Notes under the pieces: model-generated
What the model saw: the letters and a program-made list of their open reading frames with translations, nothing else
Database searches by the model: none
What the model was told of the DNA's origin: nothing
NCBI GenBank assembly: GCA_050186725.1
Contig: JBFWYG010000002.1
Location: 5,027-69,026, forward strand
Direction of reading: 5' to 3'
Source: Gammaproteobacteria bacterium
GTDB taxonomy: Bacteria > Pseudomonadota > Gammaproteobacteria > Ga0077536
Length of the DNA stretch: 64,000 nt
Translations under genes and position numbers: made by a program
Part shown: positions 3,247-34,671 of the stretch, one piece after another
How positions within the stretch are numbered: position 1 is the first letter of the stretch
Layout of the letters: each line of letters begins with the position of its first letter

Positions 3247-4833
3247 TCAGCCGCCCTGCGCGAGGCGTTCTTCGGCCAGCGCGCGCAGCTTCGCTTTCTG
3301 GATCTTGGTGCCGTTGGCGCTCAAGGTGGTCGGGAACGCCTCCAGCACGAACACTCGCTTCGGTGCCTTGTAGCCCGCCAGGCGCGCGCGGCAGTGCGCC
3401 ATCACCGCCTCGGCGTCCACCTCGCCCTCGCGCGCGAGGACGAAGGCCACCGGCGCCGGCGCGCCGTCCACCTGCACTGCCACCACCTGGCTGCTCAGCA
3501 CCTGCGGATGCTGGTCGATGACCGCTTCGATCTCGAGCGGGCTGGTGAGGAAGCCGCCCAGGCGCAGCGTGTCGCCCATGCGCGCGAGGTAGCAGAAGCG
3601 ACCATCGGCCTCGAGATAGCCGAGGTCGCCGGTGCGCAGGTAGCCATCGGCGGTAAACGCGGCGGCGGTCGCGGCAGGGTCGCCGTAGTACTCGTGCATC
3701 AGGCTGGGGCCGGCGATCTCGAGTTCGCCGGCGACACCCACCGGCAGCAATTCACCGCTCTCGGGATCGCGCACTCGCACCCGCGCCTCGGGCGCGACCG
3801 GCAGTCCCCCGCCCTTGCGCCGCTCGTTGGCCGGCAGGGCTAGCGGCTGTAGCGCGTACAGCGCGTGACATTCGCTCATGCCGTACAGGCCGCGCAGGGT
3901 CACACCGCGCGTGGCCGCGCGCTCCACGATGTCCTCCAGCGCCGGGTTGAACAGCGCGAAACCGAAGTGGCGCAGGCTCGGAAAGGCCTGTTGCTCGTCG
4001 ACCTCGGCCAGCATGCGGTCGATCATGTCGTCGACGCCGTTCATGTGCGTGATGCCGAGTTCGCGCACCAGGCGCGCCGCCTGCGGGGCATCGAACACCG
4101 GCATGACTTCCATCGGCGCGCGCGCGACGAGCGCGGCCAGCGCCTGGGTGAAGCCGTACACACCGCACAGCGGCAGCGCCTGCAGGACGCGGCATGGACC
4201 ATCGTCGAGGCCCAGGCCACGAGCCGCGTCGGCCGCGTGGCGCGCCACCGTGCCCTGCACGTGGCACACGAACTTGGGCGCCTTGGTGGTGCCCGAGGTG
4301 GTGAAGATGACGCAGCGTGCGTCCGGCCCGCCGACGACGGGGGGCGCCGGACCGTCGAGATCCGCGTAGCGCGTGCTCGGCACGCCCGGCAGCGGTTCGC
4401 CGCGCGCCTCGTCCGGTGCTTCGTTGTAGACGATGACGCGCTCGATGGCGCTGAGCGCGGCCGGTGGCACCTCGCGCAGGATGCCGGCGAAGTCGATGGC
4501 CTTGAAGGTCGGCCACAGCGCCAGCATGCGACAGCCGGACCGGCCGACGATGTCCGCCACCTCGTGGGCGCGAAAGCGCGTGTTGACCGACACCAGGATC
4601 GCGCCGAGCCGGGCGCAGGCGAACAACAGCGTGAGCCAGGCGGGAATGTTCGGCAGCCACACCGCGATGCGGTCGCCCGATCTCAAACCGTGGGCCGCGA
4701 GGCCGGCGGCGACCCGCGCGCTCTCCGCGCGCAGTTCCGCAAAGGTCATCGCGCGGCCGGCGTAGCACAGCGCGACGACGTCGTCGGGCGCATCGGCCAG
4801 CAGCGCGGTCAGATCGCGCGACGCGTGCAGCAT
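3247..4833 (-). CDS. AMP-dependent acyl-CoA synthetase/ligase
   Basis: AMP-binding motif TSGTTKAPK, plus YLRTGDLG and GYKAPK C-terminal motifs. Start set at internal MLHASRD so that it abuts the upstream gene. The ORF track extends to 4914. Confidence 0.8.
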   Translation of the reverse strand: MLHASRDLTALLADAPDDVVALCYAGRAMTFAELRAESARVAAGLAAHGLRSGDRIAVWLPNIPAWLTLLFACARLGAILVSVNTRFRAHEVADIVGRSGCRMLALWPTFKAIDFAGILREVPPAALSAIERVIVYNEAPDEARGEPLPGVPSTRYADLDGPAPPVVGGPDARCVIFTTSGTTKAPKFVCHVQGTVARHAADAARGLGLDDGPCRVLQALPLCGVYGFTQALAALVARAPMEVMPVFDAPQAARLVRELGITHMNGVDDMIDRMLAEVDEQQAFPSLRHFGFALFNPALEDIVERAATRGVTLRGLYGMSECHALYALQPLALPANERRKGGGLPVAPEARVRVRDPESGELLPVGVAGELEIAGPSLMHEYYGDPAATAAAFTADGYLRTGDLGYLEADGRFCYLARMGDTLRLGGFLTSPLEIEAVIDQHPQVLSSQVVAVQVDGAPAPVAFVLAREGEVDAEAVMAHCRARLAGYKAPKRVFVLEAFPTTLSANGTKIQKAKLRALAEERLAQGG

Positions 4834-4835
4834 GG

Positions 4836-5447
4836 TCACCTTCCTGTCTTCTGCGTGGAGGCGTGTCGCCATACCAGCAGCTGGTTGTTGGCGGGCAGCG
4901 CGAGATTCTCGCACAAGGCCAGTCCGACCCGCGCCGCCAGCGCTTCGAGCTCGGCGAGATCGCGCAGGCCGAAGCCGGGATCAAGGCCGCGCGCCCAGGC
5001 GTCCAGGCGCAGGTTGCCTTCGCTGGTGAAGCGGCCGTCGCGGTTGAATGGTCCGTACAAGAGCAAGGGACCACCTGGGCGCAACACACCGGCCACGCCC
5101 GCGAACAGCGCCTCGACCGCGGGCCAGGTCATGCAGTGCACGACGTTGGCCGCGTAGACCGCGTCAACCGTCGTCACCGGCCAGGGGCTCACGCGCACAT
5201 CGAGCGCGAGCGGCGCGGGCAGCGCGACATCCGCGCCGGCGAGGTTCGCGGCCAGTGCCGCGACCCCCGTGGGATGCTCGCTCGCCTGCCAGCGCAGTCC
5301 GGGCAGCGCGGCGGCGAAATAGCAGGCGTGCTGACCGCTGCCGGCGCCAATCTCGAGCACCTCGCGTGCGTTCTCGAGCAGCGGGCCGAGGGCCGCGAGG
5401 ATCGGCGCCTTGTTGCGTTCGGCGGCGTGGCTGAAGTCCTGGAACAT
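4836..5447 (-). CDS. DUF938-type SAM-dependent methyltransferase-like protein
   Basis: MFQDFSHAAERNKAPIL N-terminus and EIGAGSGQH glycine-rich SAM-binding motif. Its stop lies 2 bp from the ligase start, so an operon with ligase and SDR is likely. Confidence 0.55.
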   Translation of the reverse strand: MFQDFSHAAERNKAPILAALGPLLENAREVLEIGAGSGQHACYFAAALPGLRWQASEHPTGVAALAANLAGADVALPAPLALDVRVSPWPVTTVDAVYAANVVHCMTWPAVEALFAGVAGVLRPGGPLLLYGPFNRDGRFTSEGNLRLDAWARGLDPGFGLRDLAELEALAARVGLALCENLALPANNQLLVWRHASTQKTGR

Positions 5448-5549
5448 CGCGCCAGTCTAGCCGCAGCGCGGCACGACCACACTGGCTCGGCGAGCGACAC
5501 ACGGCCTGTGCTAAGGTCGCGCTACTTCGCCTTCACACCCGGCACCAGC

Positions 5550-7367
5550 ATGAACTCTCCCACCGCGGCGGGCGCCGCGCTCGACCCGCCGCGCGCGCGA
5601 CGACGCCTCGCCGGCCTGCGCGGCCTGCGCCCCTTCCTCGCGCCCTATCGCGCCGTCATCGCCGCGGCGCTGGTCGCCCTGCTGGCCGCCGCGGGCGCGT
5701 CGCTCGCCATGCCGGTCGCGGTGCGCCACGTGATCGACGCCGGTCTCGGCGACGCGCATGGCGCGGCGGTGGATCGCTATTTTCTCGGCCTGTTCGTGCT
5801 CGCCGTCGCGACCGCCTGCTTCGCCGCGCTGCGCTTCTACCTGGTGTCCTGGCTCGGCGAACGAGTGGTGGCCGATCTGCGCTCGGCGGTGTTCCGCCAC
5901 GTGCTCGGCCTGTCGTCGTCCTTCTTCGAAGTGACCAAGAGCGGCGAACTGCTCTCGCGCCTCACCACCGACACCACGCTCATCCAGAACGTGGTCGGCA
6001 GCAGCCTGTCGGTCGCGCTGCGCAGTTCGCTGACCCTCGGCGGATCGGTGGTGATGCTGACCGTCACCAGTCCACGCCTGACCGGCATCATCCTGCTGGT
6101 GATCCCGCTGGTGGTGGTACCGATCATCCTCGCCGGCCGGCGCGTGCGAGCGCTGTCCCGCGCGAGCCAGGACCGGCTCGCCGACACCTCTGCCCTGGCG
6201 GGCGAGGTGCTGAACGCGATGTCGCTGGTGCAGGCCTATACTCTGGAGGCCCTGCACGGCGCGCGCTACGAGCAGGCGGTGGAGCAGGCCTTCCTCGCGG
6301 CGCGCAAGCGCATCCGCCAGCGCGCGCTCCTCACCGCCTATGCCATCTCCATGGTGTTCGCCGCGCTGGTATTCGTGCTGTGGGTCGGCGCGCAGGACGT
6401 GGTGAGCGGGCGCATGAGCGGCGGCCAGCTCGGCCAGTTCCTGCTCTACGCGGTGTTCGCCGGTGGATCGACCGCCGGCCTGTCGGAGATCTTCGGCGCC
6501 CTGCAGCAGGCCGGTGGCGCCACCGAGAGACTGGTGGAGCTGCTGGGCGTACGGCCCGATCCGCCGCTGCCGGCCACGCCCACGCCGCTACCCACGCCGT
6601 GCCGCGGCGAATTGAGCTTCGAGCACGTGCGCTTCAGCTACCCGTCGCGGCCCACGCCGCCGGCGCTCAATGACTTCTCGCTGACGCTCAGGCGCGGCGA
6701 GACCATCGCTCTGGTCGGCCCGTCGGGCGCCGGCAAGAGCAGCGTGCTGGCGCTCGCGCTCGCCTTCTATCGGCCACAGGCCGGACGCATCCTGCTGGAC
6801 GGCGTGGATCTCGCCCTGGTCGATCCGCGCGAACTGCGCGCCCACATCGCCATCGTCGCGCAGGACACCGTGCTGTTCGCCGACAGCATCCTGGAGAACA
6901 TCCGCTACGGGCGGCCCGACGCCAGCGACGAGGAAGTGCGCGCCGCGGCGCGCGCGGCCGCCGCGTCCGAGTTCATCGAGCGGCTCCCCGACGGCTATCT
7001 CACCCAGGTCGGCGAACGCGGCGTGCGGCTCTCCGGCGGCCAGCAGCAGCGCATCTCCATCGCGCGCGCGGTGCTGAAGCAGCCCGCCATCCTGCTGCTC
7101 GACGAAGCGACCAGCGCGCTCGACGCCGAGTCGGAGTTGGCGGTGCAGGCGGCGCTCGAAGACCTGGTCCACGACCGCGCGACGCTCGTCATCGCGCATC
7201 GTCTCGCCACCGTGCGCCGCGCGGACCGCATCGTGGTGATGGACGCCGGTCGCATCGTGGCCAGCGGCACCCACGAGGATCTCACCGAGGGCGGCGGACT
7301 CTATGCGCGCCTGGCCGAACTGCAGTTCAGCGACGTCGGCCCCATCGACAGCCTGACGACGAGTTGA
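5550..7367 (+). CDS. ABC transporter, fused permease/ATP-binding (MsbA/lipid-exporter-like)
   Basis: Six-TM N-terminal domain, then Walker A GPSGAGKSS, ABC signature LSGGQQQR and Walker B ILLLDEATSALD. The ORF-track entry 4863..7367 is an artefactual N-terminal extension. MNSPTAAG at 5550 gives about 605 aa. Confidence 0.85.
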   Translation: MNSPTAAGAALDPPRARRRLAGLRGLRPFLAPYRAVIAAALVALLAAAGASLAMPVAVRHVIDAGLGDAHGAAVDRYFLGLFVLAVATACFAALRFYLVSWLGERVVADLRSAVFRHVLGLSSSFFEVTKSGELLSRLTTDTTLIQNVVGSSLSVALRSSLTLGGSVVMLTVTSPRLTGIILLVIPLVVVPIILAGRRVRALSRASQDRLADTSALAGEVLNAMSLVQAYTLEALHGARYEQAVEQAFLAARKRIRQRALLTAYAISMVFAALVFVLWVGAQDVVSGRMSGGQLGQFLLYAVFAGGSTAGLSEIFGALQQAGGATERLVELLGVRPDPPLPATPTPLPTPCRGELSFEHVRFSYPSRPTPPALNDFSLTLRRGETIALVGPSGAGKSSVLALALAFYRPQAGRILLDGVDLALVDPRELRAHIAIVAQDTVLFADSILENIRYGRPDASDEEVRAAARAAAASEFIERLPDGYLTQVGERGVRLSGGQQQRISIARAVLKQPAILLLDEATSALDAESELAVQAALEDLVHDRATLVIAHRLATVRRADRIVVMDAGRIVASGTHEDLTEGGGLYARLAELQFSDVGPIDSLTTS

Positions 7368-13278: not shown

Positions 13279-13929
13279 TCAGCCTGCCATCTTGAGCTGC
13301 GGCGCCGCCGGGTGCAGGCTCGACTGGGCGCTCGGACGCGCCGCGACGCGTGCGTACCACGCCGTCAGGTTGGCGAACTCCGGCTCCAGCGGCTGACCGA
13401 CGCCCTTGGCGAAATCCACGCACGCGAACAGCACGATATCCGCGAGCGAGAAACGGCTGCCGGCGATGAAGTCGCGACCGGCCATGAGTCCGTTCAGCCA
13501 CTCCCGACCGGCCTTGCCCTTGGCCTTCAGGCCGGCAGCGGCCTCCGGCAGGCACAGCATGCGGTTGCGGAAGATCTCGATGCCTTCTGCGAAGCGGAAT
13601 CCGTTGTACATATATTCCGTGATGTTCAGTTCGACGCGGCGCACCCACATGCGCGTCTCGGCGCGCTGCTCGGCGGTCGTGCCGACGAGCGCCGGGGTGG
13701 GGTGCTTCTCTTCCAGGTACTCACATATGACCACCGTCTCGGCCAGCACCGTGCCGTCGTCCAGTTCCAGCGCCGGCGTCTGACCCGCGGGGTTCTTGCT
13801 CAGGTAGGGCGCCTGGCGATTCGCGCCGCCGAGCAGGTCCAGGTCTTCGCTGGGCAGGGTAATGCCCTTCTCGGCCATGAACATGCGCACGAGGCGCGGG
13901 TTCGGGCCAAAGGAATTCAGCAGCTTCAT
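13279..13929 (-). CDS. Glutathione S-transferase
   Basis: GST N-terminal thioredoxin-like fold (MKLLNSFGPNPRLVRMFMAEKG) and C-terminal helical domain. A GGAG RBS lies 8 nt upstream of MKLL. The ORF-track start at 13965 lacks an RBS. Confidence 0.8.
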   Translation of the reverse strand: MKLLNSFGPNPRLVRMFMAEKGITLPSEDLDLLGGANRQAPYLSKNPAGQTPALELDDGTVLAETVVICEYLEEKHPTPALVGTTAEQRAETRMWVRRVELNITEYMYNGFRFAEGIEIFRNRMLCLPEAAAGLKAKGKAGREWLNGLMAGRDFIAGSRFSLADIVLFACVDFAKGVGQPLEPEFANLTAWYARVAARPSAQSSLHPAAPQLKMAG

Positions 13930-14304
13930 ATCGTTGTCTCCTCGCTGGTCTGGCCTCGCCGGCACGAGCGCCGGCGCGATCCCGAAGGTGTTCGGGAACG
14001 GCCGTTATAGGGAGGGGCCGCAGGCGCGTCAATCGACGCGGCTGGGTCGGGCCCGGCCGCGCCGTGTTCGTTCAGGCGCGGCTCAGTTCGGGCTGACATG
14101 CTGCGCGCGCTTTACTTTTCCCATGGTGCGACGCACCATGCGCCGCCGCGAAGCGGGCCCGATGACCCGGCAGGCTGCGAGCCCTGGTGGGAACGCGTCC
14201 CCGGTCCTACGGATCTGGATGAGCTGCGTGCATTTAACGTTTGATTCATTGGGCCTTTGTCAATACCATTCACGTATCGTGATGGTTCCCACGGTGAACC
14301 AACA

Positions 14305-14946
14305 ATGCTGAGACCCCTGCGCTACTGGCTGGCTGCCTTGATCTTCCTGCCGCTCCTTTGCGGCGCCGCAGAGGCGCCAGTCGTCTCGGGACCGACCTGT
14401 GGCGGACGCCAGCACGAGGTGCCTCTCGCCACCGAGACCGGCTCGGTCGGCATCGTGCAGAACATGGCCGAGGACCCCAGCTCCATCCGGGTCGTGGCGG
14501 GCAGACTGCTGACCAAGGCCTTCGACCTGGACCGCAAGACCGCGCGCGCCGACTGCGGGCCGCATTGCCCGGCGCGGGAAATGTCGCAGATCGTCTACCG
14601 CGTGACGCCCACCGCCTTCCTCGCCGATGAGCAGCAACGCGACGTGTGCCGTCAGTTCGAGCACGAGACGCGCTCCCGGCCCATGACCTTCGACCAGCGC
14701 GAGTTCGCGAGCGTCGAGGCGATGAACCAGTGGATCATGGAGTTCTCCCAGGGCCGGGGTGAAGACGGGCGCCTGCTGTACGCGCGCTGCTCGTCGAACT
14801 GCAGCCCGCGCTACACCTTCCTGATCGCCGAGCAGACCAGCGGCTACGCCGTGAAGACCGAGGTGCTTTGCGGCCTGGCGCGCGACAAGACCAACGACGT
14901 CTACCTGGTATCGACCGCCGTACGGCGCAGCTGCGCGCTGAATTGA
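14305..14946 (+). CDS. Hypothetical cysteine-rich secreted protein
   Basis: Signal peptide (LAALIFLPLLCGAAEA) followed by about 12 Cys in a soluble domain. No family recognised. Confidence 0.4.
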   Translation: MLRPLRYWLAALIFLPLLCGAAEAPVVSGPTCGGRQHEVPLATETGSVGIVQNMAEDPSSIRVVAGRLLTKAFDLDRKTARADCGPHCPAREMSQIVYRVTPTAFLADEQQRDVCRQFEHETRSRPMTFDQREFASVEAMNQWIMEFSQGRGEDGRLLYARCSSNCSPRYTFLIAEQTSGYAVKTEVLCGLARDKTNDVYLVSTAVRRSCALN

Positions 14947-14957
14947 GCATCGCGGCC

Positions 14958-15842
14958 ATGGATCGGGGCGTCACCGACGCCGCCCGCCGCTGGGCGTGGC
15001 CGCTGCTGGTGACGAGCGCCTGCGCGATCCTCGCGGCGGGCTTCGCGCGCGACACCCCCACCCTGTTCTTCAATCTCTCCTACGCCTGGATCATCGCCTG
15101 GCTTCTGCTGCTCGAAGCGTGGCTGCCGTTCCGCGAGACCTGGCGCCGATCGGACGGTCAGATCCTGCAGGACCTCGGTCACAGCGTGCTGAACAAGGGC
15201 CTGGTGCAACTCATCATCGTCACGCTCGCAGGGCACGGCGTGCTGGAGCAGCGCGCGCCGGGACTGCTCGGCACGGCGCCCATGGCGCTGCAGGTGGCGG
15301 TGGGACTGGTGGCGTCGGAATTCGGCCTCTACTGGGCGCACCGACTGAAGCACGAATGGCCGGCGCTGTGGCGCTTCCATGCTGTCCATCACAGCGTGCG
15401 CAAGCTGTGGCTGGTGAACACCGGACGCTTCCACTTCGTCGACTCGCTGCTGGCGGTGGCGGCGAGCTTGCCGGGACTGCTGCTGACCGGCATCTCGATG
15501 GACGCGATCATCTGGGTCAGCGCCATCACCGCCTACATCGGCATCCTCACCCACTGCAATGTCGACATGTGCTGCGGGCGCCTGAGCCTGGTGTTCAACA
15601 CCCCCAACCTGCACCGCTGGCACCATGCGATCGACACCAGCATCGGCAACAGCAACTACGGCGAGAATCTCGTACTGTGGGATCGCCTGCTCGGCACCTT
15701 CCACCATCGGCCGGGCGCCGAGGTCGAGGCCATCGGCATTCGCGAGTTCATGCCGACCGGGTTCCTGGGCCAGCTCGCCGCGCCGTTCCGCTGGCGGCGC
15801 TGCCAGGCGGAAGGCGCCTCAACCGCCGGCGAAGGACGCTGA
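14958..15842 (+). CDS. Fatty acid hydroxylase superfamily protein (sterol desaturase family; OlsE-like candidate lipid hydroxylase)
   Basis: Multi-TM protein with the three histidine boxes HRLKH, HAVHH and HRWHH. Start at MDRGV within longer ORF 14868..15842. Confidence 0.7.
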   Translation: MDRGVTDAARRWAWPLLVTSACAILAAGFARDTPTLFFNLSYAWIIAWLLLLEAWLPFRETWRRSDGQILQDLGHSVLNKGLVQLIIVTLAGHGVLEQRAPGLLGTAPMALQVAVGLVASEFGLYWAHRLKHEWPALWRFHAVHHSVRKLWLVNTGRFHFVDSLLAVAASLPGLLLTGISMDAIIWVSAITAYIGILTHCNVDMCCGRLSLVFNTPNLHRWHHAIDTSIGNSNYGENLVLWDRLLGTFHHRPGAEVEAIGIREFMPTGFLGQLAAPFRWRRCQAEGASTAGEGR

Positions 15843-16739
15843 GCTGCGCAAGCGCAACCATTGCCAACCCAGCCAACCCATCATGCGCACCAGCCGCGCG
15901 GTGCCACGCAGGCCAAGCGCAAGCGCGATCATGCTGACCAGCGCGCGCACGTGAGCAAGGCCGTACATCGACATGACGAGCCGCTGGTAGACCGCCGCGC
16001 AGCGCGCGCGCTCGTAGCGCGCCCCCGGCCGAGTGGCCTCGTTGGCACTGAACCACGCGAAGGCCAGTTCGTCGTCGTCGGTCTCGCCCACCCGCCCGAG
16101 CGCGATGCGCAGCCGCGCCCAGGGCCCGAGGCCCGCCTGGCGGGCATAGCGAGCGAGATGGCGGTGAAACAAGCGGTAGTGCTGGGCCTCGTCCTGCGCG
16201 ATGCGATGGCAGATGTCGCGCAACACGGGCTCGGCGGCGCGATCGCGGAGCGCCGAGTAGTAGGAACAGGTGCCCGACTCCACCACGCAGCGCGCCAGCA
16301 GCTCGCCTGCCCGCGAACCACGCACCGATTCCGCCGCGTCGAGCGGGATGCGGTAGCCGGCGCGGAAGCGGGCCAGCGCCGCGGCGAAGTCGAAACCGGG
16401 GTCGGCGAGTTCGGCCCAGCGCCCGAGCGCCGCGCCGTGCTGCGCCTCCTCCTCTCCCCAGCGCGCGGCGGCGGCGCGGAACGCCGGGTCGTCGGCGAAC
16501 ACGTTGTCGAGGTAGCGCACGTAGTCGGCGCTGTTGGCCTCGACCACCGCGGCGGTCTTCACCGCCGCCAGCAGGCGCGGGTCCACCGCGGAACGCTCGA
16601 AGCCCGCCCAGTCAATGTCTTCCAGACGCCAGTGGCGCGTCGCGCGTCCCGAGGGAGGCTGGCTTTCGGTATGATGCGCGCCCGCGGTGGCCGGCGCGCT
16701 TGCGCCGGACGTATCCGGCGTATCGGAGGCGTGGAGCAT
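15819..16739 (-). CDS. Ferritin-like diiron-carboxylate protein (acyl-ACP-desaturase/AurF-like)
   Basis: Two E..H diiron motifs (EEEAQH, DEAQHYRLFHRH). 3' end overlaps the convergent hydroxylase gene by 24 nt. Confidence 0.45.
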   Translation of the reverse strand: MLHASDTPDTSGASAPATAGAHHTESQPPSGRATRHWRLEDIDWAGFERSAVDPRLLAAVKTAAVVEANSADYVRYLDNVFADDPAFRAAAARWGEEEAQHGAALGRWAELADPGFDFAAALARFRAGYRIPLDAAESVRGSRAGELLARCVVESGTCSYYSALRDRAAEPVLRDICHRIAQDEAQHYRLFHRHLARYARQAGLGPWARLRIALGRVGETDDDELAFAWFSANEATRPGARYERARCAAVYQRLVMSMYGLAHVRALVSMIALALGLRGTARLVRMMGWLGWQWLRLRSSASFAGG

Positions 16740-16849
16740 CGACGATGGGGCTCGAAAGGTCGCGGTCGTGACTCTGGGCCCGCTAGTGTAACAATCTCGT
16801 GCGAGCCTGCCTCGGCCCGCCGCCGTCCCGCGGAGAACATCCAGCCTTC

Positions 16850-18688
16850 ATGACGCGCGAACGCTCCTACTTCACCCTGCGACACCATCTGCCCCAAGCC
16901 TTAGGTCCGCTGCGCGGACCGCTGGCCCGCACGCTTGATCGCGCGCTCCGGCTCGACGGCCTGAACGACGTCTGGCGTGCCATCCCGGTGGGTACCGACC
17001 CGCACACCTTCGCGCGCTGCGTGCTGGACAACTGCGGCGTCGAGGCGCGCATCGACGACTCGCTGAGCAACGTGCCGGCCAGCGGCCCGTGCATCGTCGT
17101 CGCCAATCATCCGCACGGCATGCTGGACGGCGTGGCGATGGTCGAGCTGCTCATGCGCCGACGGCCCGACCTGCGCGTGATGGCGAATTTCCTGCTGCTG
17201 AACTTCAACGAGCTCGCGCCGATCTTCATCGGCGTCGATCCGTTCGGCGGCCCGAATGCGTCCCGCGCCAATTTCAGCGCGGTTCGTCGCGCGCTCGCCT
17301 GGCTGAAGCAGGGCGGCGTGCTCATGCTGTTCCCGGGCGGCGAAGTCTCGAGTCTCAGCCTGCGCACACGCGTCGTGAGCGACCCGCCCTGGGATGCCGG
17401 CGTCGGCTGGCTGGTGGAGAAGTCCGGCGCGCCGGTCGTGCCGTGCTTCATCGATGGCCGCAACAGCGCGCTGTTCCAGGCCGCCGGCCTGCTCCATCCG
17501 CGGCTGCGCACCGCGCTCCTGGTGCGCGAGATGCTGAATCACCGCGGGACGGTGCTGAACGTCAAGTGCGGTCGGCCCATCGAAGCGGAGACGCTCGCGG
17601 TGCTCGGCGATCGCGCCGCCATCGGCCCCTACCTGCAGGCCAACACCTACCTCATCAAGGCACGCAACGCCTATCGCAAGCCGGTGCGCCTGACGCGCGT
17701 GCCGCCTGCCCAGGTGCATCGCGAACCGCTGGCCGCGGCCATCGAGCCGGCGCTCTTGGCGCGCGAGGTCGGGGCGCTCGCGCCCGAACAGCGCCTGGTC
17801 AGCACCAGCCAGTACGAAGTGTGGGTGGCGCAGGCCGACCAGGTGCCGTGGCTGCTGCAGGAAATCGGTCGCCTGCGCGAGATGACCTTCCGCCAGGTCG
17901 GCGAGGGCACCGGGCGCAGCGTCGACCTGGACCTGTTCGACAGCTATTACCTGCACCTCTTCGTGTGGGACCCGGCCAAGCAGCTGGTCATCGGCGGTTA
18001 CCGTCTCGGCCAGGCCGACCGCATCCTGTCGCGCTACGGCGCGCGCGGCCTGTACGTGCGCAGCCTGTTCAAGCTCGAGCGCTCACTGGAGGCGGAGCTG
18101 CATTCCGCGCTCGAGGTCGGACGCTCCTTCGTGCGCCCGGAGCACCAGCGCAACTACTCCTCGCTGATGCTGCTGTGGAAGGGCATAGGCGCCTATGTCG
18201 CCCGCCATCCGCACTACCGCGTGCTGTTCGGCCCGGTCAGCATCAGCAACGACTACCACCCGGTCTCGCAGCAGCTGATGGTGCGCTTCCTGCAACGCAA
18301 TCGGATGGAGCCGCAGCGCGCCAGCCTGGTGAAGCCGCGGCGACCCTTTCCGCGCGGGGATCGAACCGCCACGCTGATGGATCTGAACGTGAGCGATCTG
18401 CGCATCATCGCCGCGCTGCTGAACACGGTGGAGGAGCAGGACATCGGCATCCCGGTGCTGCTCCGCCAGTACCTGAAACTGAACGGGCGCATCCTCGGCT
18501 TCAACGTGGACCCGGAGTTCAACAACGCCATCGACTGCCTGCTGTGGGTGGACCTGTCGCTGACCGAGGTGCCGCTGCTGCGCAAGTACATGGGCGCCGA
18601 GGGCGCGGACCGCTTCCTCGCCCACCACGGCTGCGCGGCGGACGGCGCGGCCGCTGCGCCGCTGCGCCGCGTGAACCAGGCCGAGTGA
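16850..18688 (+). CDS. Bifunctional lysophospholipid/aminolipid acyltransferase, OlsF-like (N-terminal PlsC-type O-acyltransferase plus C-terminal OlsB/GNAT-like N-acyltransferase)
   Basis: N-terminal HX4D acyltransferase motif (VVANHPHGMLDG) and FPGGEVS motif. The C-terminal ~300 aa resemble the OlsB/hemolysin-like N-acyltransferase fold (...DLFDSYYLHLFVWD...IGGYRLG...). Confidence 0.55.
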   Translation: MTRERSYFTLRHHLPQALGPLRGPLARTLDRALRLDGLNDVWRAIPVGTDPHTFARCVLDNCGVEARIDDSLSNVPASGPCIVVANHPHGMLDGVAMVELLMRRRPDLRVMANFLLLNFNELAPIFIGVDPFGGPNASRANFSAVRRALAWLKQGGVLMLFPGGEVSSLSLRTRVVSDPPWDAGVGWLVEKSGAPVVPCFIDGRNSALFQAAGLLHPRLRTALLVREMLNHRGTVLNVKCGRPIEAETLAVLGDRAAIGPYLQANTYLIKARNAYRKPVRLTRVPPAQVHREPLAAAIEPALLAREVGALAPEQRLVSTSQYEVWVAQADQVPWLLQEIGRLREMTFRQVGEGTGRSVDLDLFDSYYLHLFVWDPAKQLVIGGYRLGQADRILSRYGARGLYVRSLFKLERSLEAELHSALEVGRSFVRPEHQRNYSSLMLLWKGIGAYVARHPHYRVLFGPVSISNDYHPVSQQLMVRFLQRNRMEPQRASLVKPRRPFPRGDRTATLMDLNVSDLRIIAALLNTVEEQDIGIPVLLRQYLKLNGRILGFNVDPEFNNAIDCLLWVDLSLTEVPLLRKYMGAEGADRFLAHHGCAADGAAAAPLRRVNQAE

Positions 18689-18758
18689 CGCCTGCCAGGC
18701 GCGCGTCGGCCGCGTATACTCCGGCCACCACGGGCAACACTCCAGGGGAGGAATCGCC

Positions 18759-19145
18759 ATGCAAGTGAACCAGAACGCGTCCTTGAAGAAGCACCACCTG
18801 CCGGGCCTGGAGCACCAGACCCTGGCCGGGCAGCGCGACGGCCTGAAGAGTATCGAAGTCTGGCGTCAGACCATCGCCGCGGGCGCCGCGACACCGGTCC
18901 ACCGCCACGACTGCGAAGAAGTGATCGTGGTGCTGAAGGGCGAGGCGGTGTGCTACTGCGGTGGCCAGGAGTACCGCGCCAAGGAAGACGAGACCTTCGT
19001 CATTCCGTCCGGCGTCACCCACCAGATCTGCAACGCCGGCGACAGCGACCTGTACATCATGGCGACGCTGGCCATGGCGCCGGTCCGAGTGGAAACGGCG
19101 GAGCACCAGCACATGGCGCTGCCCTGGGACGGCCAGCAGGCATGA
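18759..19145 (+). CDS. Cupin-domain protein
   Basis: Single cupin barrel with His cluster (PVHRHDCEEVIVVLKG ... GVTHQICN). GGGGAGG RBS upstream. Confidence 0.7.
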   Translation: MQVNQNASLKKHHLPGLEHQTLAGQRDGLKSIEVWRQTIAAGAATPVHRHDCEEVIVVLKGEAVCYCGGQEYRAKEDETFVIPSGVTHQICNAGDSDLYIMATLAMAPVRVETAEHQHMALPWDGQQA

Positions 19146-19969
19146 GCGCGGCCGGCGGCGCGACCGTGCGCACGGCCTTCGTGCCGGGCGCGCCGCGACT
19201 GGCCTACGACGTGGCCGGCGACGGTCCGGCGACCCTGGTCTGCCTGCACGGCGTCGGCGGCAACCGACGCAACTGGACCGAACAACTGACCGCGCTCGCC
19301 GACGTCTGCCGGGTGGTGGCGTGGGACGCGCGTGGCTACGGCGACAGCGACGACTATGAGGGGCCGCTCGCCTTCACCGATTTCGCCGACGACCTGCTGC
19401 GCCTCCTCGATCACCTGGGCGTGGCGCGCGCCCACCTGTGCGGCCTGTCCATGGGCGGACGCATCATTCTCGATTTCCACGAGCGCCACGCCGACCGGGT
19501 CGCGAGCCTGGTCCTGGTGGACACTTTCCCCGGCTACGACGCGTCCTTCACCGCCGAGGGCCGCGAACGCTTCGTGCGCGAGCGGCGCCAGCCGCTGATC
19601 GAAGGCAAGGAACCGCGCGACATCGCGCCCGCGGTGGCGAAGTCCCTGGTCTCGCCGAAGACCTCGCCGGACATCCTGCAGAAACTCGTCGACAGCATCT
19701 CGATCCTGCACAAGGATTCGTACATCAAGACCATCGAAGCGCTGACCATGTACCAGCCGGTCACGGACGTCTCGCTCATCCGCTGCCCGGTGCAGGTCAT
19801 CGTCGGGGCGGACGACCGCCTCACGCCGCCTTCCATCTCGCGCAAGATGGCCGAGAGCATCGCCGGCGCGCGGCTGCTCGAGATCCCGGACGCCGGACAC
19901 TTGAGCAATCTCGAGGCGCCGACGGCGTTCAACGCCTGCCTGCGCGAGTTCCTCACCCCACTCGTCTAG
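19142..19969 (+). CDS. Alpha/beta-hydrolase (3-oxoadipate enol-lactonase-like)
   Basis: HGVGGN oxyanion region, nucleophile elbow GLSMGG, C-terminal His. ATGA overlap with the cupin stop suggests translational coupling. Confidence 0.8.
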   Translation: MSAAGGATVRTAFVPGAPRLAYDVAGDGPATLVCLHGVGGNRRNWTEQLTALADVCRVVAWDARGYGDSDDYEGPLAFTDFADDLLRLLDHLGVARAHLCGLSMGGRIILDFHERHADRVASLVLVDTFPGYDASFTAEGRERFVRERRQPLIEGKEPRDIAPAVAKSLVSPKTSPDILQKLVDSISILHKDSYIKTIEALTMYQPVTDVSLIRCPVQVIVGADDRLTPPSISRKMAESIAGARLLEIPDAGHLSNLEAPTAFNACLREFLTPLV

Positions 19970-19989
19970 CCGCCCGCGCCGGCCGGCGC

Positions 19990-20742
19990 TCAGCCGGGCT
20001 TGCGCGTGAGCATCAAGGTCAGGGGCCAGTTCACCACCCGCGTCGCGGCTACACCCCACGCGCTTTCGAGCCGCGCCGCGAGAACCGGCATGGGATCGAC
20101 GCCGTTCGCCTGGCGATAGCGCGTCACCGCCGACCAGGTCGCGACATAGGCCAGCACCTGCGCCAGCGACCACGCGGCCTGCATCTCGAGCGTGCAGCGC
20201 GCGCCGCCGCCCCATGGCAGGTCGATATCCGCGTAGGCGTTCTCCACGTGCCGGCGATCCGCTGGCCACCAGGCGCCGATCTCCTCCGTGTAGAAGCGTC
20301 CCAGTTCCGCGTCCACCACGGGCGTGATGGCGAACAGGTTGTAGGTCCACACCGCCAGCACGCCGCCCGGCTTCAGCACGCGCTGGACCTCGGCGAAGAA
20401 CGGTGGAAGATCGAACCAGTGCAGCGCCTGTGCGACCGTCACCAGGTCGACGCTGGCCGCCGGCAACGGCGCCCGCTCCGCACGCGCAGCGACCAATCCA
20501 TCGTGCCCGCGTCGCCGCGCCTCGCCGAGCTGGGCCAGGCTCGCATCGCTGGCCAGCACCTGGGCGTAGTGCGCGCACAGGCCGGCGAGCGCCTGGCCGC
20601 TGCCGGTGCCGACATCCCAGGCCAGCTGCTGCTCACGCGTCTCGGCCGCGAGCCGCGCGAAGAGCGCGTCGGGGTAGTGCGGGCGGAATGCGCCGTAGTC
20701 GGCCGCGCGCGCCGAGAAATGGTCGGCGAAGCCCGCGCTCAC
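19990..20742 (-). CDS. Class I SAM-dependent methyltransferase
   Basis: VGTGSGQ SAM motif I and LKPGG motif post II. 4-nt overlap with the upstream GGDEF gene. Confidence 0.8.
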   Translation of the reverse strand: MSAGFADHFSARAADYGAFRPHYPDALFARLAAETREQQLAWDVGTGSGQALAGLCAHYAQVLASDASLAQLGEARRRGHDGLVAARAERAPLPAASVDLVTVAQALHWFDLPPFFAEVQRVLKPGGVLAVWTYNLFAITPVVDAELGRFYTEEIGAWWPADRRHVENAYADIDLPWGGGARCTLEMQAAWSLAQVLAYVATWSAVTRYRQANGVDPMPVLAARLESAWGVAATRVVNWPLTLMLTRKPG

Positions 20743-21836
20743 AAGGCGGCGGCGGCCGGCGTACGCGCGGTGGCGCCCTCTTCACTATCCACTTCGATGC
20801 GGTCGCGACCGCGCGTCTTGGCGGCGTAGAGCGCGCGGTCGGCGCGACGCAGCAGGCTCTCGGTGTCGTGCGTGTCCAGGCCGCGCACCCAGGTCAGGCC
20901 GATGGACACGGTGAGCTGGCCGCGCTCGCCGGCCACGTGCGGCAGGTTCAGATCGCGCACGCCCTCGACGATGGCCTCGGCGACGAACAGTGCGTCGTTG
21001 CCGCTCGGGCCAGAGGACACCACGCAGAACTCCTCGCCGCCGTAGCGGAACACGAGATCGGTCGCGCGCCGCGCCGCGCGGCGAATGACCTCGGCGACCT
21101 GGGACAGCGCGCGGTCGCCGGCGATGTGGCCGTAGTTGTCGTTGTAGCGTTTGAAGTGATCGATGTCGATCATGTACACCGCCAGGCCTTCCTGGCGCCG
21201 CCGCGCGCGGTTGAAGAGGTTACCGAACAGCTCTTCGAATAGCTGGCGGTTGTAGGTCTTGGTCAGGGTGTCGGTGTGCGACAGGCGGCTGATGGCACGC
21301 ACGCTGGCCTCGTAGCCGCGCGCGAAGAGATACATGGCATAGGCGAAAATCGGGTGGGCGGTGAGCAGGATCATCACCGACAACGGCTCGTATTGCGCGC
21401 GCTTGACGTAGAACACCGCGCACAACGCCAGCAGATCGGCCAGCGACCACCACACCCCGCGTCGGCTGCCGGCCAGCAGGAAGGCGATCATCGGGATCAG
21501 CATCTGCCAGGGCTTGTTGTCGAGCTGCTCGTTGCCGAACCAGATGCCTGCCAGCGTCACGCCCATGCACAGGCCGAGGAACAGGCTGGCGCTCGCGGGA
21601 TGGGCGTAGCGCCGCAGGTTGTGCACGAAACACAGCGCGGCCACGCCGACGAAGAACACGCAGGAGACATAGAACAAGGGGCGGATGCCGACCATCCAGT
21701 AGGCCGGTAGAACGGGCACGGCGAGCAGCGTCGCGGTGTACAGGAACCGGGTCAGGACCTCGCGCTGGAAATGCGCGATGCGGACCTCGCCTGGATCGGC
21801 TTCGGACGATGACACGGGAGTGGACATGTTCAGCAC
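20739..21836 (-). CDS. Membrane-anchored diguanylate cyclase (MASE-like TM domain plus GGDEF)
   Basis: About 6 TM helices, then YGGEEFCVV GGDEF active site with RxxD I-site-like residues upstream. Confidence 0.85.
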   Translation of the reverse strand: MLNMSTPVSSSEADPGEVRIAHFQREVLTRFLYTATLLAVPVLPAYWMVGIRPLFYVSCVFFVGVAALCFVHNLRRYAHPASASLFLGLCMGVTLAGIWFGNEQLDNKPWQMLIPMIAFLLAGSRRGVWWSLADLLALCAVFYVKRAQYEPLSVMILLTAHPIFAYAMYLFARGYEASVRAISRLSHTDTLTKTYNRQLFEELFGNLFNRARRRQEGLAVYMIDIDHFKRYNDNYGHIAGDRALSQVAEVIRRAARRATDLVFRYGGEEFCVVSSGPSGNDALFVAEAIVEGVRDLNLPHVAGERGQLTVSIGLTWVRGLDTHDTESLLRRADRALYAAKTRGRDRIEVDSEEGATARTPAAAAL

Positions 21837-32241: not shown

Positions 32242-34671
32242 ATGAGGTTCCGAGTAGCAAAATGGATCATGACGCACCGCTTCGGTGTGGGCATGGCCTT
32301 CCTCATCGTGACACTGGGTTTCATGAGCCAGTTTCCGAAAGTCGAGATCCGCACGATCTACAACGACTTCCTGCCGACCAACGAAGAGTTCGTGAAGATC
32401 TTCTTCGCGCATCGCAACTTCGGTAATCCGCTGACCATGTCCATCATGGTCAAGAACAAGAACGGCGACATCTACAACCCGGAAACGCTGGCCAAGGTCT
32501 ACGCCATCACGCGCGACATCGACCTCGCGCCGTATATCGACCATGACCAGATCATCTCCATCTCGACGGAGAAGATGCGCTACGCGGAAGCCACGCGTGA
32601 CGGCATCGACACCAAGCCGCTGATGAGCGACCATGCGCCGGCCACCGAGGAGGAGATCGCGGAGTTCCGTCGCCGCGTGAACATCTCCTCCGGCGCTCAG
32701 ACCTTCTACATCTCCGGCGACAGCACCGCGACCCTGATCAACGCCGCCTTCCTCGATACCATCGACTACGGCGAAGCGTTCAAGTACGTGCAGGATCTGG
32801 TGGTCAAGAACCGCGACGCCAACCACGAGGTACACCTCGTCGGACAGCCCGCGCTCACCGGCTGGGTGTACAAGCTGCAGCACCAGACCTACACCATCTT
32901 CGCCACCACCATCGGCGTGATGCTCCTGCTGCTGGTGTTCTACATGGGCAACATCGCCGGCACCGTGATGCCGCTCGCGAGCGCGGCGACCGCCGGCATC
33001 TGGGGCTTTGGCACCATCGGCTGGTACGAGCGTCCGATCGAGCCGCTCCTGATGATCGTGCCGCTGCTGCTGGTGGCCCGCTCCATCTCGCACTGCATTC
33101 AGTACACCGAGCGCTACTACGAGGTGCTGAATCATGTGAAGGACAAGGTGCTGGCCGCCGAGATCACCATGGCGATCATGATGGCGCCATCGATCCTCGG
33201 CATCTTCACCGACGTGTTCGGCATCATCTTCATCGCCATCGCGCCGATCAAGACGATGATCAACCACTCGATCTTCTGCGGCTGGTGGGCGTTCTGGATC
33301 ATCCCGACCGGCGTGTTCCTGGCCTCCATCCTGCTGTCCTACCTGCCGGTGCCGAATAATCTCGAGAAGATCGTCGGCGGCGCGGAGAAGGAATCCGCCT
33401 TCCATCGTTGGCAGACTGGGCTGCTGGAGAACATCGCGCACATCACCTACGGCAACGCCGCGCGCGTCACCGCCGTGGTGGTCACGATCGTTGCCGTCAT
33501 CGCGATCTACCTGACCTCGCAGATCAAGGTCGGCAACCCGGTCGAGGGCACCAACCTGCTGTGGAACGAGTCGGAGTTCAACACCGGCACGCGCGCCATC
33601 AACGCGCACTTCCCCGGCACCAACACGCTGGAAATCGTGCTGGAAGCCAAGGAGCGCAAGAACGACCATCGCGTGGTGAACACCCCGGACGTCGTGCAGG
33701 TGGCGACCGAGATGCAACGCTCGCTGGAATCGGATCGCTCCGATCCCAACCTGCCGCCGCGCGCCACGCTGTCGTTCTCGGACTACATGCGTGACATCAA
33801 CCGCCTGTTCGCCGGCGGTAACCCGAAGTGGATGCCGCTGGATCCGACGCCGGAAGCGATTTCGGCCGCCGGCTTCGCCGCGCTGATGGGCTCCAACGCC
33901 ATCAACTTCAGCCACGTCGCCGACTTCGAGTTCCAGGACTCGACGGTCTCCGCGTGGTTCCGCGACAACAAGCAGGGCACGGTGGACGCGGCGCTCGCCT
34001 CGGCCTTCGCGGCCGGCGAAAAGGTGGGTCTGGACCATCCCGAGTTCAAGGTGCGTATCGCCACCGGCGTGATCGCGCTCCAGCAGGCGATGAACAACGT
34101 GGTCAAGAAGTACCACTGGCTCATCCTCGGCTGCGTGAACATCGGCGTGTTCTTCCTGGCCTGGTACGCCTATCGGTCCATGGTCGCGGCCTTCCTGCTG
34201 CTGGTGCCGGTGAACCTGTCGAACTTCATGCTGATGGCCTCGATGCACGTCATCGGCATCGGTCTCGACATCAACGCGGCCATCGTCGCGGTGATGGGCG
34301 TGGGCGTGGGTATCGACTACGGCATCTACCTCTTGTCCCGCATCTGCGAGGAGTACGTGGCGCAGGACCAGGATCTGAAGAAGGCCATCTTTGCCTCGCT
34401 GACCACGACCGGCAAGGCCATCATGTTCACCGCGTCGATCATGCTGCTCGCCATCCTGCCGTGGTACTTCCTGTCGGATCTGAAGTTCATGGCCGACATG
34501 GGCGTGCTGCTGGTGGCCATCATGCTGATCAACATGGTGCTGTCGCTGGTCGTGCTGCCGCTCCTGGTGTGGTTCGTCAATCCGAACTTCATGCGCCGCA
34601 CGGACCTGATGGTCGGCGAGAACGTCGACCTGACGCAGTTCATGGACAAGGTCGACGAAGCCGTCGTCTGA
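32242..34671 (+). CDS. RND-superfamily exporter, MMPL/SSD family (paralog 1)
   Basis: 809 aa. Two 6-TM bundles, each preceded by a large periplasmic domain, and an SSD-like TM region. GGGAGAG RBS. About 55-60% identical to 51896..54310 by eye. Confidence 0.8.
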   Translation: MRFRVAKWIMTHRFGVGMAFLIVTLGFMSQFPKVEIRTIYNDFLPTNEEFVKIFFAHRNFGNPLTMSIMVKNKNGDIYNPETLAKVYAITRDIDLAPYIDHDQIISISTEKMRYAEATRDGIDTKPLMSDHAPATEEEIAEFRRRVNISSGAQTFYISGDSTATLINAAFLDTIDYGEAFKYVQDLVVKNRDANHEVHLVGQPALTGWVYKLQHQTYTIFATTIGVMLLLLVFYMGNIAGTVMPLASAATAGIWGFGTIGWYERPIEPLLMIVPLLLVARSISHCIQYTERYYEVLNHVKDKVLAAEITMAIMMAPSILGIFTDVFGIIFIAIAPIKTMINHSIFCGWWAFWIIPTGVFLASILLSYLPVPNNLEKIVGGAEKESAFHRWQTGLLENIAHITYGNAARVTAVVVTIVAVIAIYLTSQIKVGNPVEGTNLLWNESEFNTGTRAINAHFPGTNTLEIVLEAKERKNDHRVVNTPDVVQVATEMQRSLESDRSDPNLPPRATLSFSDYMRDINRLFAGGNPKWMPLDPTPEAISAAGFAALMGSNAINFSHVADFEFQDSTVSAWFRDNKQGTVDAALASAFAAGEKVGLDHPEFKVRIATGVIALQQAMNNVVKKYHWLILGCVNIGVFFLAWYAYRSMVAAFLLLVPVNLSNFMLMASMHVIGIGLDINAAIVAVMGVGVGIDYGIYLLSRICEEYVAQDQDLKKAIFASLTTTGKAIMFTASIMLLAILPWYFLSDLKFMADMGVLLVAIMLINMVLSLVVLPLLVWFVNPNFMRRTDLMVGENVDLTQFMDKVDEAVV

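Follow-up and report, generated by a model that had tools for sequence, protein, structure and literature searches.

A gammaproteobacterial locus pairing OlsF-like and OlsE-like genes, with a conserved di-iron protein and a secreted cysteine-rich protein as candidate accessory factors

Which membrane lipid would be made by a group of genes assembled around an OlsF-like acyltransferase in an uncultured gammaproteobacterium, and which of the neighbouring genes belong to the pathway? Ornithine lipids take the place of phospholipids when phosphate is scarce and under stress, and membrane properties are tuned through modification of these lipids. The DNA analysed here (the window) is a stretch of 64,000 nt from contig JBFWYG010000002.1 of a Gammaproteobacteria bacterium, with a GC content of ~69%, the genome likewise having 69% GC. 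Its nearest public relative is an uncultured "Gammaproteobacteria bacterium" metagenome-assembled genome (MAG) contig (L001), which shares 85-99% amino acid identity gene by gene. A first-pass annotation of the window had described an OlsF-like synthase, an OlsE-like hydroxylase, a ferritin-like di-iron protein, a cupin and an alpha/beta hydrolase; the coordinates and domain calls are correct for all five, which are true open reading frames (ORFs) with a third-position GC of 0.83-0.90 as judged from the ORF listing and codon-position GC. The locus probably combines OlsF-type synthesis of an ornithine-type acyloxyacyl lipid with OlsE-type hydroxylation of its head group, steps that are read across from characterised homologues.

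The OlsF-like gene (16850-18688, plus strand) encodes a 612-aa protein with zero transmembrane segments. Pfam matches comprise Acyltransf_2 (PF19576) on residues 29-270 with 50.5 bits, Acyltransferase (PF01553) with 31.4 bits and Acetyltransf_5 (PF13444) on residues 342-443 with 75.1 bits, and a single polypeptide therefore carries the two domains looked for in OlsF, an N-terminal PF19576 O-acyltransferase of the Acyltransf_2/PlsC clan (16934-17659, plus strand) and a C-terminal PF13444 OlsB-like N-acyltransferase of the OlsB/GlsB type (17780-18568, plus strand). The NCBIfam OlsF model (NF052615) is matched end to end (387.5 bits, model positions 22-561 of 570), and the single-domain models each fall on the expected half of the protein, GlsA with 87 bits on residues 15-250 (cut-off 260), GlsB with 128 bits on residues 311-559 (cut-off 300) and the OlsB models with 57.8 and 47.7 bits. 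The OlsF-type bifunctional architecture of the first-pass annotation is borne out by these Pfam and NCBIfam matches; in the profile comparison OlsF is the full-length match and GlsB and OlsB match the C-terminal half, which does align to OlsB/GNAT-type N-acyltransferases.

An alignment of 10 sequences, comprising the window protein, five members of its clade and four proteins from cultured genera (Vibrio, Aeromonas, Enterobacter, Flavobacterium), shows N86-H87-P88-x-G90-xx-D93-G94 and F161-P-x-G-E-V-S167 to be invariant or nearly so, represented in the window by NHPHGMLDG (17105-17131, plus strand) and FPGGEVS (17330-17350, plus strand). Invariant residues of the C-terminal half are E338, R341, R343, E344, R348, D359, D361, D364, Y384, R385, E422 and R425. 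The N-terminal half had been described as "PlsC-type HX4D", which holds for the O-acyltransferase domain but not for the motif, since NHPHGMLDG spaces His to Asp by five residues rather than four; this spacing is the OlsF/GlsA-type PF19576 signature and not the classical PlsC HX4D, and the OlsF N-terminus is known to be of the PF19576 type, in common with GlsA, rather than the PlsC/OlsA type (PMC11631085). By tblastn against PLSDB, the protein is 40% identical to Vibrio/Photobacterium homologues and 33-37% identical to those of Enterobacter, Klebsiella, Aeromonas and Bacteroidota over 80-89% of its length, the 33-40% range referring to homologues including Flavobacterium and not to the references Serratia A0A7U0N5K6 and F. 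johnsoniae A5FLQ1. OlsF activity has been published for the genera of these homologues, and the operational criterion for OlsF in a recent review is at least 30% identity and at least 70% coverage to a functionally proven OlsF (PMC12971839). Homologues carry the names 'lysophospholipid acyltransferase family' and 'GNAT family N-acyltransferase' in public records. By analogy with these enzymes, the product is very probably a phosphorus-free ornithine-type membrane lipid.

Upstream on the same strand, the OlsE-like gene (14958-15842) encodes a protein matched by FA_hydroxylase (PF04116, 101 bits) and, as its sole NCBIfam match, by OlsE (NF052566, 295.5 bits, model positions 7-285 of 293). It has about four hydrophobic segments and the three His boxes HRLKH (15339-15353), HAVHH (15378-15392) and HRWHH (15612-15626), all encoded on the plus strand, and is thus a membrane protein of the fatty-acid hydroxylase superfamily. 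Identity to Rhizobium/Ensifer (Rhizobiaceae) homologues is 43-46% at >90% coverage and drops clearly, to ~35% over 76%, for other proteins of the sterol-desaturase family, placing the window protein nearer to the Rhizobiaceae OlsE type. The proposal of an OlsE-like hydroxylase beside the OlsF-like gene therefore gains from both the end-to-end model match and the three His boxes. In R. tropici and A. tumefaciens the position hydroxylated by OlsE is C4 of the ornithine head group (PMC12971839), and the presence of such a hydroxylase adjoining the synthase is the best available argument for an ornithine or lysine head group and not a glycine one.

Between these two genes, on the minus strand, lies the gene for the ferritin-like di-iron protein (15819-16739), the 3' end of which overlaps that of the olsE-like gene by 24 bp, tail to tail, and which is transcribed divergently from the olsF-like gene. 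The ligands E67, E98xxH101, E154 and E184xxH187 are invariant in 42 homologues and form a six-ligand set of the carboxylate-bridged type, in agreement with the first-pass call of a di-iron protein; their codons, all on the minus strand, are at 16539-16541 (E67), 16446-16448 (E98), 16437-16439 (H101), 16278-16280 (E154), 16188-16190 (E184) and 16179-16181 (H187). The only coherent group in a PDB profile search is formed by acyl-ACP desaturases (DesA2 1za0, E 0.0016; delta-4, delta-6 and delta-9 enzymes). Foldseek searches with the AF2 model (pLDDT 89.3) likewise return the ivy, Thunbergia and castor acyl-ACP desaturases on top (TM ~0.6, E down to 7e-5), ranking R2lox, aldehyde-deformylating oxygenase (ADO) and RNR-R2 below them, and alignment, model and Foldseek agree on the desaturase pattern of E, ExxH, E and ExxH on a four-helix bundle. 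Membership in the soluble acyl-ACP desaturase family PF03405 was rejected: the protein gives no significant family-model match, with Pfam reporting just Rubrerythrin at 17.6 bits, under threshold, and PF03405 is recorded for 2 of 120 homologues; it is accordingly classed as desaturase-like. The family is small, with 966 representatives at 50% identity, 225 of them with E ≤1e-30. The protein has no transmembrane segment and ends in a Trp/Arg-rich amphipathic helix (residues 276-298) that suggests peripheral membrane binding. In relatives it starts with MLRxWKLEDI, 220-260 bp from olsF; this near start codon has been lost in the window and L001, where the ORF extends to the ATG at 16739, and the resulting 33-residue N-terminal extension of the window protein (16640-16739, minus strand) is unconserved, predicted to be disordered and crosses a conserved DNA block described below. 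The extended protein has 306 aa, its conserved part opening as WRLEDIDW at about residue R35.

The fourth gene, hyp229, sits just outside the coordinates of the first-pass annotation and is absent from it. The ORF (14257/14305-14946, plus strand; 213-229 aa) opens at TTG 14257, ATG 14305 being the likelier start, and its stop lies 12 bp ahead of the olsE-like start, making co-transcription with olsE probable. The hypothetical protein combines a signal peptide with eight conserved cysteines and with motifs under strong conservation, and has zero matches in Pfam and NCBIfam; 143 homologues were found in 5.8 billion proteins, every one of them named hypothetical. Direct PDB sequence searches with hyp229 and with the OlsF-like and OlsE-like proteins gave zero matches.

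Conservation of gene order was followed through a search from the OlsF side, which yielded 30 genome loci, and another from the di-iron side, which yielded 80 metagenome loci; 36 OlsF/OlsE-linked loci underlie the comparison of the conserved block. The order hyp229, OlsE-like, di-iron (opposite strand) and OlsF-like is found in 27 of the 30 genome loci, where the contig reaches, and in all nine clade metagenome loci long enough to reveal neighbours. Genome loci keep the four genes down to 53% OlsF identity, and across the whole set the block persists to ~51-53% while the flanks change: it remains where other genes have taken the place of the flanking GST and LLM genes, and at least nine loci have both flanks altered and the block intact. 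The gene for hyp229 is confined to this clade and always lies immediately upstream of olsE. None of the OlsF partners accompany the more distant homologues L022 (Victivallales, 41%) and L030 (32%).

The four genes are closely packed, and the divergent region shared by the di-iron and olsF-like genes contains two conserved non-coding blocks in 12 aligned loci, to which no strand is assigned. The core T-T-x-x-G-T-A-T-x-A-T of the block TTTCGGTATGATG (16664-16676) is invariant in all 12, its flanks being otherwise poorly conserved; in the window it falls within the extended 5' end of the di-iron ORF, and it could be a -10-like element for olsF. The block AGTGTAACAA (16785-16794), 55 bp 5' of the olsF-like start, appears as (A/T)(G/T)TGTAACAA in nine of the 12 loci, is reduced to TTGTAAC in L010 and is missing from two. 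The distance between the blocks varies from ~50 to 125 bp among loci. They could represent a promoter or operator; the region has no Rfam family match, and an Rfam scan of the locus returned two chance-level eukaryotic RNA matches only. No terminators were detected in a scan of 13900-20100, in which ~2.2 would be expected by chance, so operon limits cannot be drawn from terminators.

In the pathway proposed here, the N-terminal Acyltransf_2 domain (NHPxGxxDG, FPxGEVS) of the OlsF-like enzyme would esterify a second fatty acid to the 3-hydroxyl, and the three-His-box membrane enzyme would then hydroxylate the head group, as OlsE does at ornithine C4. The di-iron protein would make an O2-dependent change, a desaturation or hydroxylation, on an acyl chain of the aminolipid or of the acyl donor, and the secreted, disulfide-rich hyp229 would, tentatively, act in the periplasm by binding a small hydrophobic ligand. 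Neither the cupin and hydrolase nor the distant transporters belong to the system. The fuller version of this scheme, in which the di-iron protein is a novel O2-dependent modifier of aminolipid acyl chains unrelated to the known modifiers OlsC, OlsD, OlsE and OlsG, and in which hyp229 is a periplasmic factor for aminolipid binding or trafficking, the four genes jointly forming a cassette, is tentative and on present evidence rather doubtful.

Several observations weigh against the proposed pathway or its accessory part. Both core enzymes score under their NCBIfam equivalog cut-offs (387.5 versus 620 bits for OlsF, 295.5 versus 475 bits for OlsE), so substrate identity is not guaranteed, and some OlsF/OlsB homologues make lysine, glycine or glutamine lipids (PMC12971839). 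A search for Pho boxes (CTGTCATNNNNCTGTCAT, up to three mismatches) gave a single match, far from the locus, with ~3 expected by chance, leaving phosphate regulation without evidence. As to the accessory genes, 71 of the 80 metagenome di-iron loci (50-57% identity, mostly from soil) have no OlsF or OlsE neighbour, nine having one, and in 39 of these 71 an atpH-A-G-D-C operon precedes the di-iron gene, which follows the ATP synthase epsilon gene after ~136 bp. In one genome locus (L017) hyp229, OlsE and OlsF are kept and the di-iron gene is absent. Beside the OlsF homologues L119-L121, which lie just beyond the clade at 47-50% identity, all three partners are missing, as they are in cultured Vibrio, Aeromonas, Enterobacter, Klebsiella and Flavobacterium. 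In a neighbour-joining tree all 36 OlsF/OlsE-linked di-iron copies form one clade, so that the linkage has a single origin and could reflect synteny by descent. Retention of the linkage after a single origin is real but limited evidence of functional coupling; with the di-iron family also occurring away from OlsF, a role in aminolipid modification is plausible and unproven.

The same data allow other accounts of the locus. The enzymology could be as described with a different head group, the product being a lysine, glycine, serine-glycine, glutamine or undescribed amino-acid lipid. The sub-threshold OlsF score, the GlsB match of 128 bits to the C-terminal half and an identity of just 33-40% to homologues from genera with proven OlsF activity all leave room for this, and F. 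johnsoniae OlsF also makes lysine lipid while OlsB/OlsF relatives make glycine and glutamine lipids (PMC12971839). However, OlsF is far ahead of the other models at full length, and a glycine head group would offer no target to an OlsE-like hydroxylase, which acts on the ornithine side chain; hydroxylysine lipids do exist (PMC4484230), so a lysine head group stays compatible with the OlsE-like enzyme. Taken together, we regard a different head group as unlikely. It is highly improbable that the OlsF-like protein, instead of a bulk membrane lipid, produces an N-acyl amino acid for secretion or signalling, or is a 'hemolysin'-type acyltransferase: several database homologues are named 'putative hemolysin' and the C-terminal domain shares its family with N-acyl amino acid synthases (PMC11631085), but the fused O-acyltransferase domain with its conserved motifs points to a diacylated acyloxyacyl product, and the name hemolysin goes back to historical mis-annotation of OlsF homologues (PMC4484230). 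A substantial possibility, held at somewhat below even weight, is that only olsF and olsE are functionally coupled and that the di-iron gene and hyp229 are present through inherited gene order with unrelated roles, that of the di-iron enzyme being, for example, a general fatty-acid or housekeeping one, as may apply where it follows the ATP synthase operon. The many di-iron genes without OlsF or OlsE, 39 of them just downstream of atpC, the monophyly of the linked copies, indicating one linkage event, and the locus that lacks the di-iron gene and retains the rest are all as expected from inherited order, and synteny within the clade extends in part to other flanking genes (GST, LLM, GFA). Against it stand the insertion of the di-iron gene between olsE and olsF, with its overlap of the olsE 3' end and the conserved divergent control region shared with olsF, the survival of the four-gene block in at least nine loci with both flanks changed, and the restriction of hyp229 to the clade, always directly upstream of olsE.

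The widest account is that of the first-pass annotation, a complete make-and-modify module extended to the cupin and the alpha/beta hydrolase, with exporters nearby. The cupin (18759-19145, plus strand; Cupin_2 58.8 bits, best Pfam match the plant Auxin_BP with 75.5 bits) and the hydrolase (19142-19969, plus strand; Abhydrolase_1, 112.5 bits) do lie directly after olsF in the window and in its closest relatives, sharing its strand and with no detected terminator in between, and an alpha/beta-fold O-acyltransferase, OlsI, exists in another ornithine-lipid pathway (PMC12971839). The cupin stop and hydrolase start overlap in an ATGA (19142-19145), which makes translational coupling of the two probable, but the pair has its own ribosome-binding site (RBS), and the lone promoter-like site of the 13900-20100 scan (18692-18720) falls in the 70-bp gap between olsF and the cupin. 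The pair is confined to relatives whose OlsF identity is at least 64%, is parted from OlsF by insertions of 1.3-2.4 kb in five of them and is absent from all relatives at ≤57%, where the other four genes are kept; in some relatives an LLM-like gene follows OlsF in its place. An OlsI (NF052614) identity for the hydrolase was rejected at 38.8 bits against a cut-off of 385, its best NCBIfam models being PcaD-type enol-lactonases (153-159 bits, under cut-off). The exporters are not adjacent either, the ABC exporter (4863-7367) lying 7.6 kb from the locus with five unrelated genes between, and the MMPL protein (32242-34671) 13.5 kb away, again behind unrelated genes. A module of this extent is therefore very unlikely: the OlsF-like, OlsE-like and di-iron genes of the original proposal stand, the cupin and hydrolase keep their identities and lose their membership, and the exporters fall away.

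Some features of these neighbours are recorded for their own sake. The ABC exporter ORF is 834 aa long with an ABC_membrane domain only from residue 268, reflecting either an over-called start codon or an unrecognised N-terminal domain, and overlaps the 5' end of a divergent acyl-CoA synthetase-like gene (3247-4914). The 809-aa product of 32242-34671, the gene for which is unusually GC-poor in the first and second positions of its codons, has a weak MMPL-family match (54.9 bits) on residues 608-778 only and may be a divergent RND/MMPL-type transporter. Downstream of the hydrolase on the minus strand, a class-I SAM methyltransferase gene (19990-20742) and a gene for a MASE6-GGDEF diguanylate cyclase (20739-21836) share 4 bp (20739-20742) and probably form one operon (19990-21836); the two are retained in several relatives. 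Considered as a possible OlsG-like N-methyltransferase, the methyltransferase matched only generic class-I methyltransferase models in Pfam and NCBIfam and is retained only in closer relatives.

A constant companionship of the di-iron gene with OlsF was ruled out by the di-iron-side metagenome scan and by its absence from OlsF-bearing PLSDB records, and occurrence of the four-gene block beyond the clade was ruled out in a Thermodesulfobacteriota locus, in two others at 47-50% identity and in the cultured genera. The di-iron homologues that follow an F1 ATP synthase operon (L041-L110, L116-L118; for example L116:1030-6906) are 50-62% identical to the window copy and come from soil and other metagenomes; beyond the di-iron gene lie genes for a NUDIX protein, a CtpA-type S41 peptidase, a divergent polysaccharide deacetylase and iPGM, with neither OlsF nor OlsE close by. 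That the F1 operon stands alone suggests Alphaproteobacteria, and zero Pfam matches were obtained for the neighbours of the di-iron homologue in L116. Two records with the clade's locus are probably mis-binned or mislabelled, L023 (CAMCBY010000174.1), deposited as a 'Klebsiella pneumoniae' MAG and 86-89% identical to the window OlsF-like protein, and L017 (CAZFZX010000034.1), deposited as 'uncultured Enterobacteriaceae'. In L111 (CP125156.1 1005733-1017245), a Klebsiella pneumoniae record of 5.37 Mb that PLSDB lists as a plasmid, the OlsF homologue between hemB and tauD is in three match pieces with no coding sequence (CDS) annotation and an adjoining transposase, and may be disrupted in this strain.

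Many gammaproteobacterial orders are already on record as having OlsF homologues, and those of OlsE are reported to be widespread (PMC12971839), so the core of the locus consists of ordinary members of known families, and the prediction of a hydroxylated ornithine-type lipid made via OlsF rather than OlsBA in a widespread uncultured gammaproteobacterial clade is an incremental one. The only potentially new element is the accessory pair of di-iron protein and hyp229. Within the literature covered, no paper ties a ferritin-like protein to ornithine lipids, and the two current reviews mention no such enzyme; only five ornithine-lipid modifications have been described, and enzymes for some of the observed hydroxylations are still to be found (PMC12971839). 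The well-conserved di-iron family and the 143-member secreted protein family are candidates for new aminolipid biology. Should the di-iron enzyme act on the lipid, it would represent a new enzyme class in aminolipid modification and provide a functional lead for its ATP-synthase-linked relatives.

Among characterised systems, the OlsF enzymes of Serratia proteamaculans (Spro_2569), Flavobacterium johnsoniae (Fjoh_0833), Vibrio cholerae and Klebsiella pneumoniae are the closest comparators of the synthase, which resembles them in domain order (PF19576 then PF13444), in its end-to-end NCBIfam match, in the NHPxGxxDG and FPxGEVS motifs and in its C-terminal invariants. It differs in being just 33-40% identical to homologues from these genera and under the equivalog cut-off, and none of OlsE, the di-iron gene or hyp229 adjoins OlsF in the comparator loci, the Enterobacter/Klebsiella gene lying between hemB and tauABCD. 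The hydroxylase shares with OlsE of Rhizobium tropici and Agrobacterium tumefaciens the superfamily, the three His boxes and a full-length model match, with 43-46% identity to Rhizobiaceae homologues, whereas it scores under the cut-off (295 versus 475), has OlsF in place of OlsBA as its partner and follows the gene for a clade-specific secreted protein.

With the acyl-ACP desaturases (castor delta-9, ivy delta-4, Thunbergia delta-6 and M. tuberculosis DesA2) the di-iron protein has the E/ExxH/E/ExxH core of a four-helix bundle in common, and they are its best profile and fold matches, yet at 12-17% identity and TM ~0.6; it is also shorter (~274 aa), has a Trp/Arg-rich C-terminal amphipathic helix and belongs to no above-threshold Pfam family. 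If it modifies an aminolipid acyl chain, its role would be analogous to that of OlsC and OlsD, the LpxO-type Fe2+/2-oxoglutarate acyl-chain hydroxylases, which differ from it in fold and cofactor and show no homology to it; no OlsC/OlsD-type gene is present in the locus. Finally, the halves of the synthase match GlsA (87 bits) and GlsB (128 bits) of the Bacteroides glycine-lipid pathway, but with scores far under the cut-offs (260 and 300), and in the window the two activities are fused in one protein and accompanied by a head-group hydroxylase.

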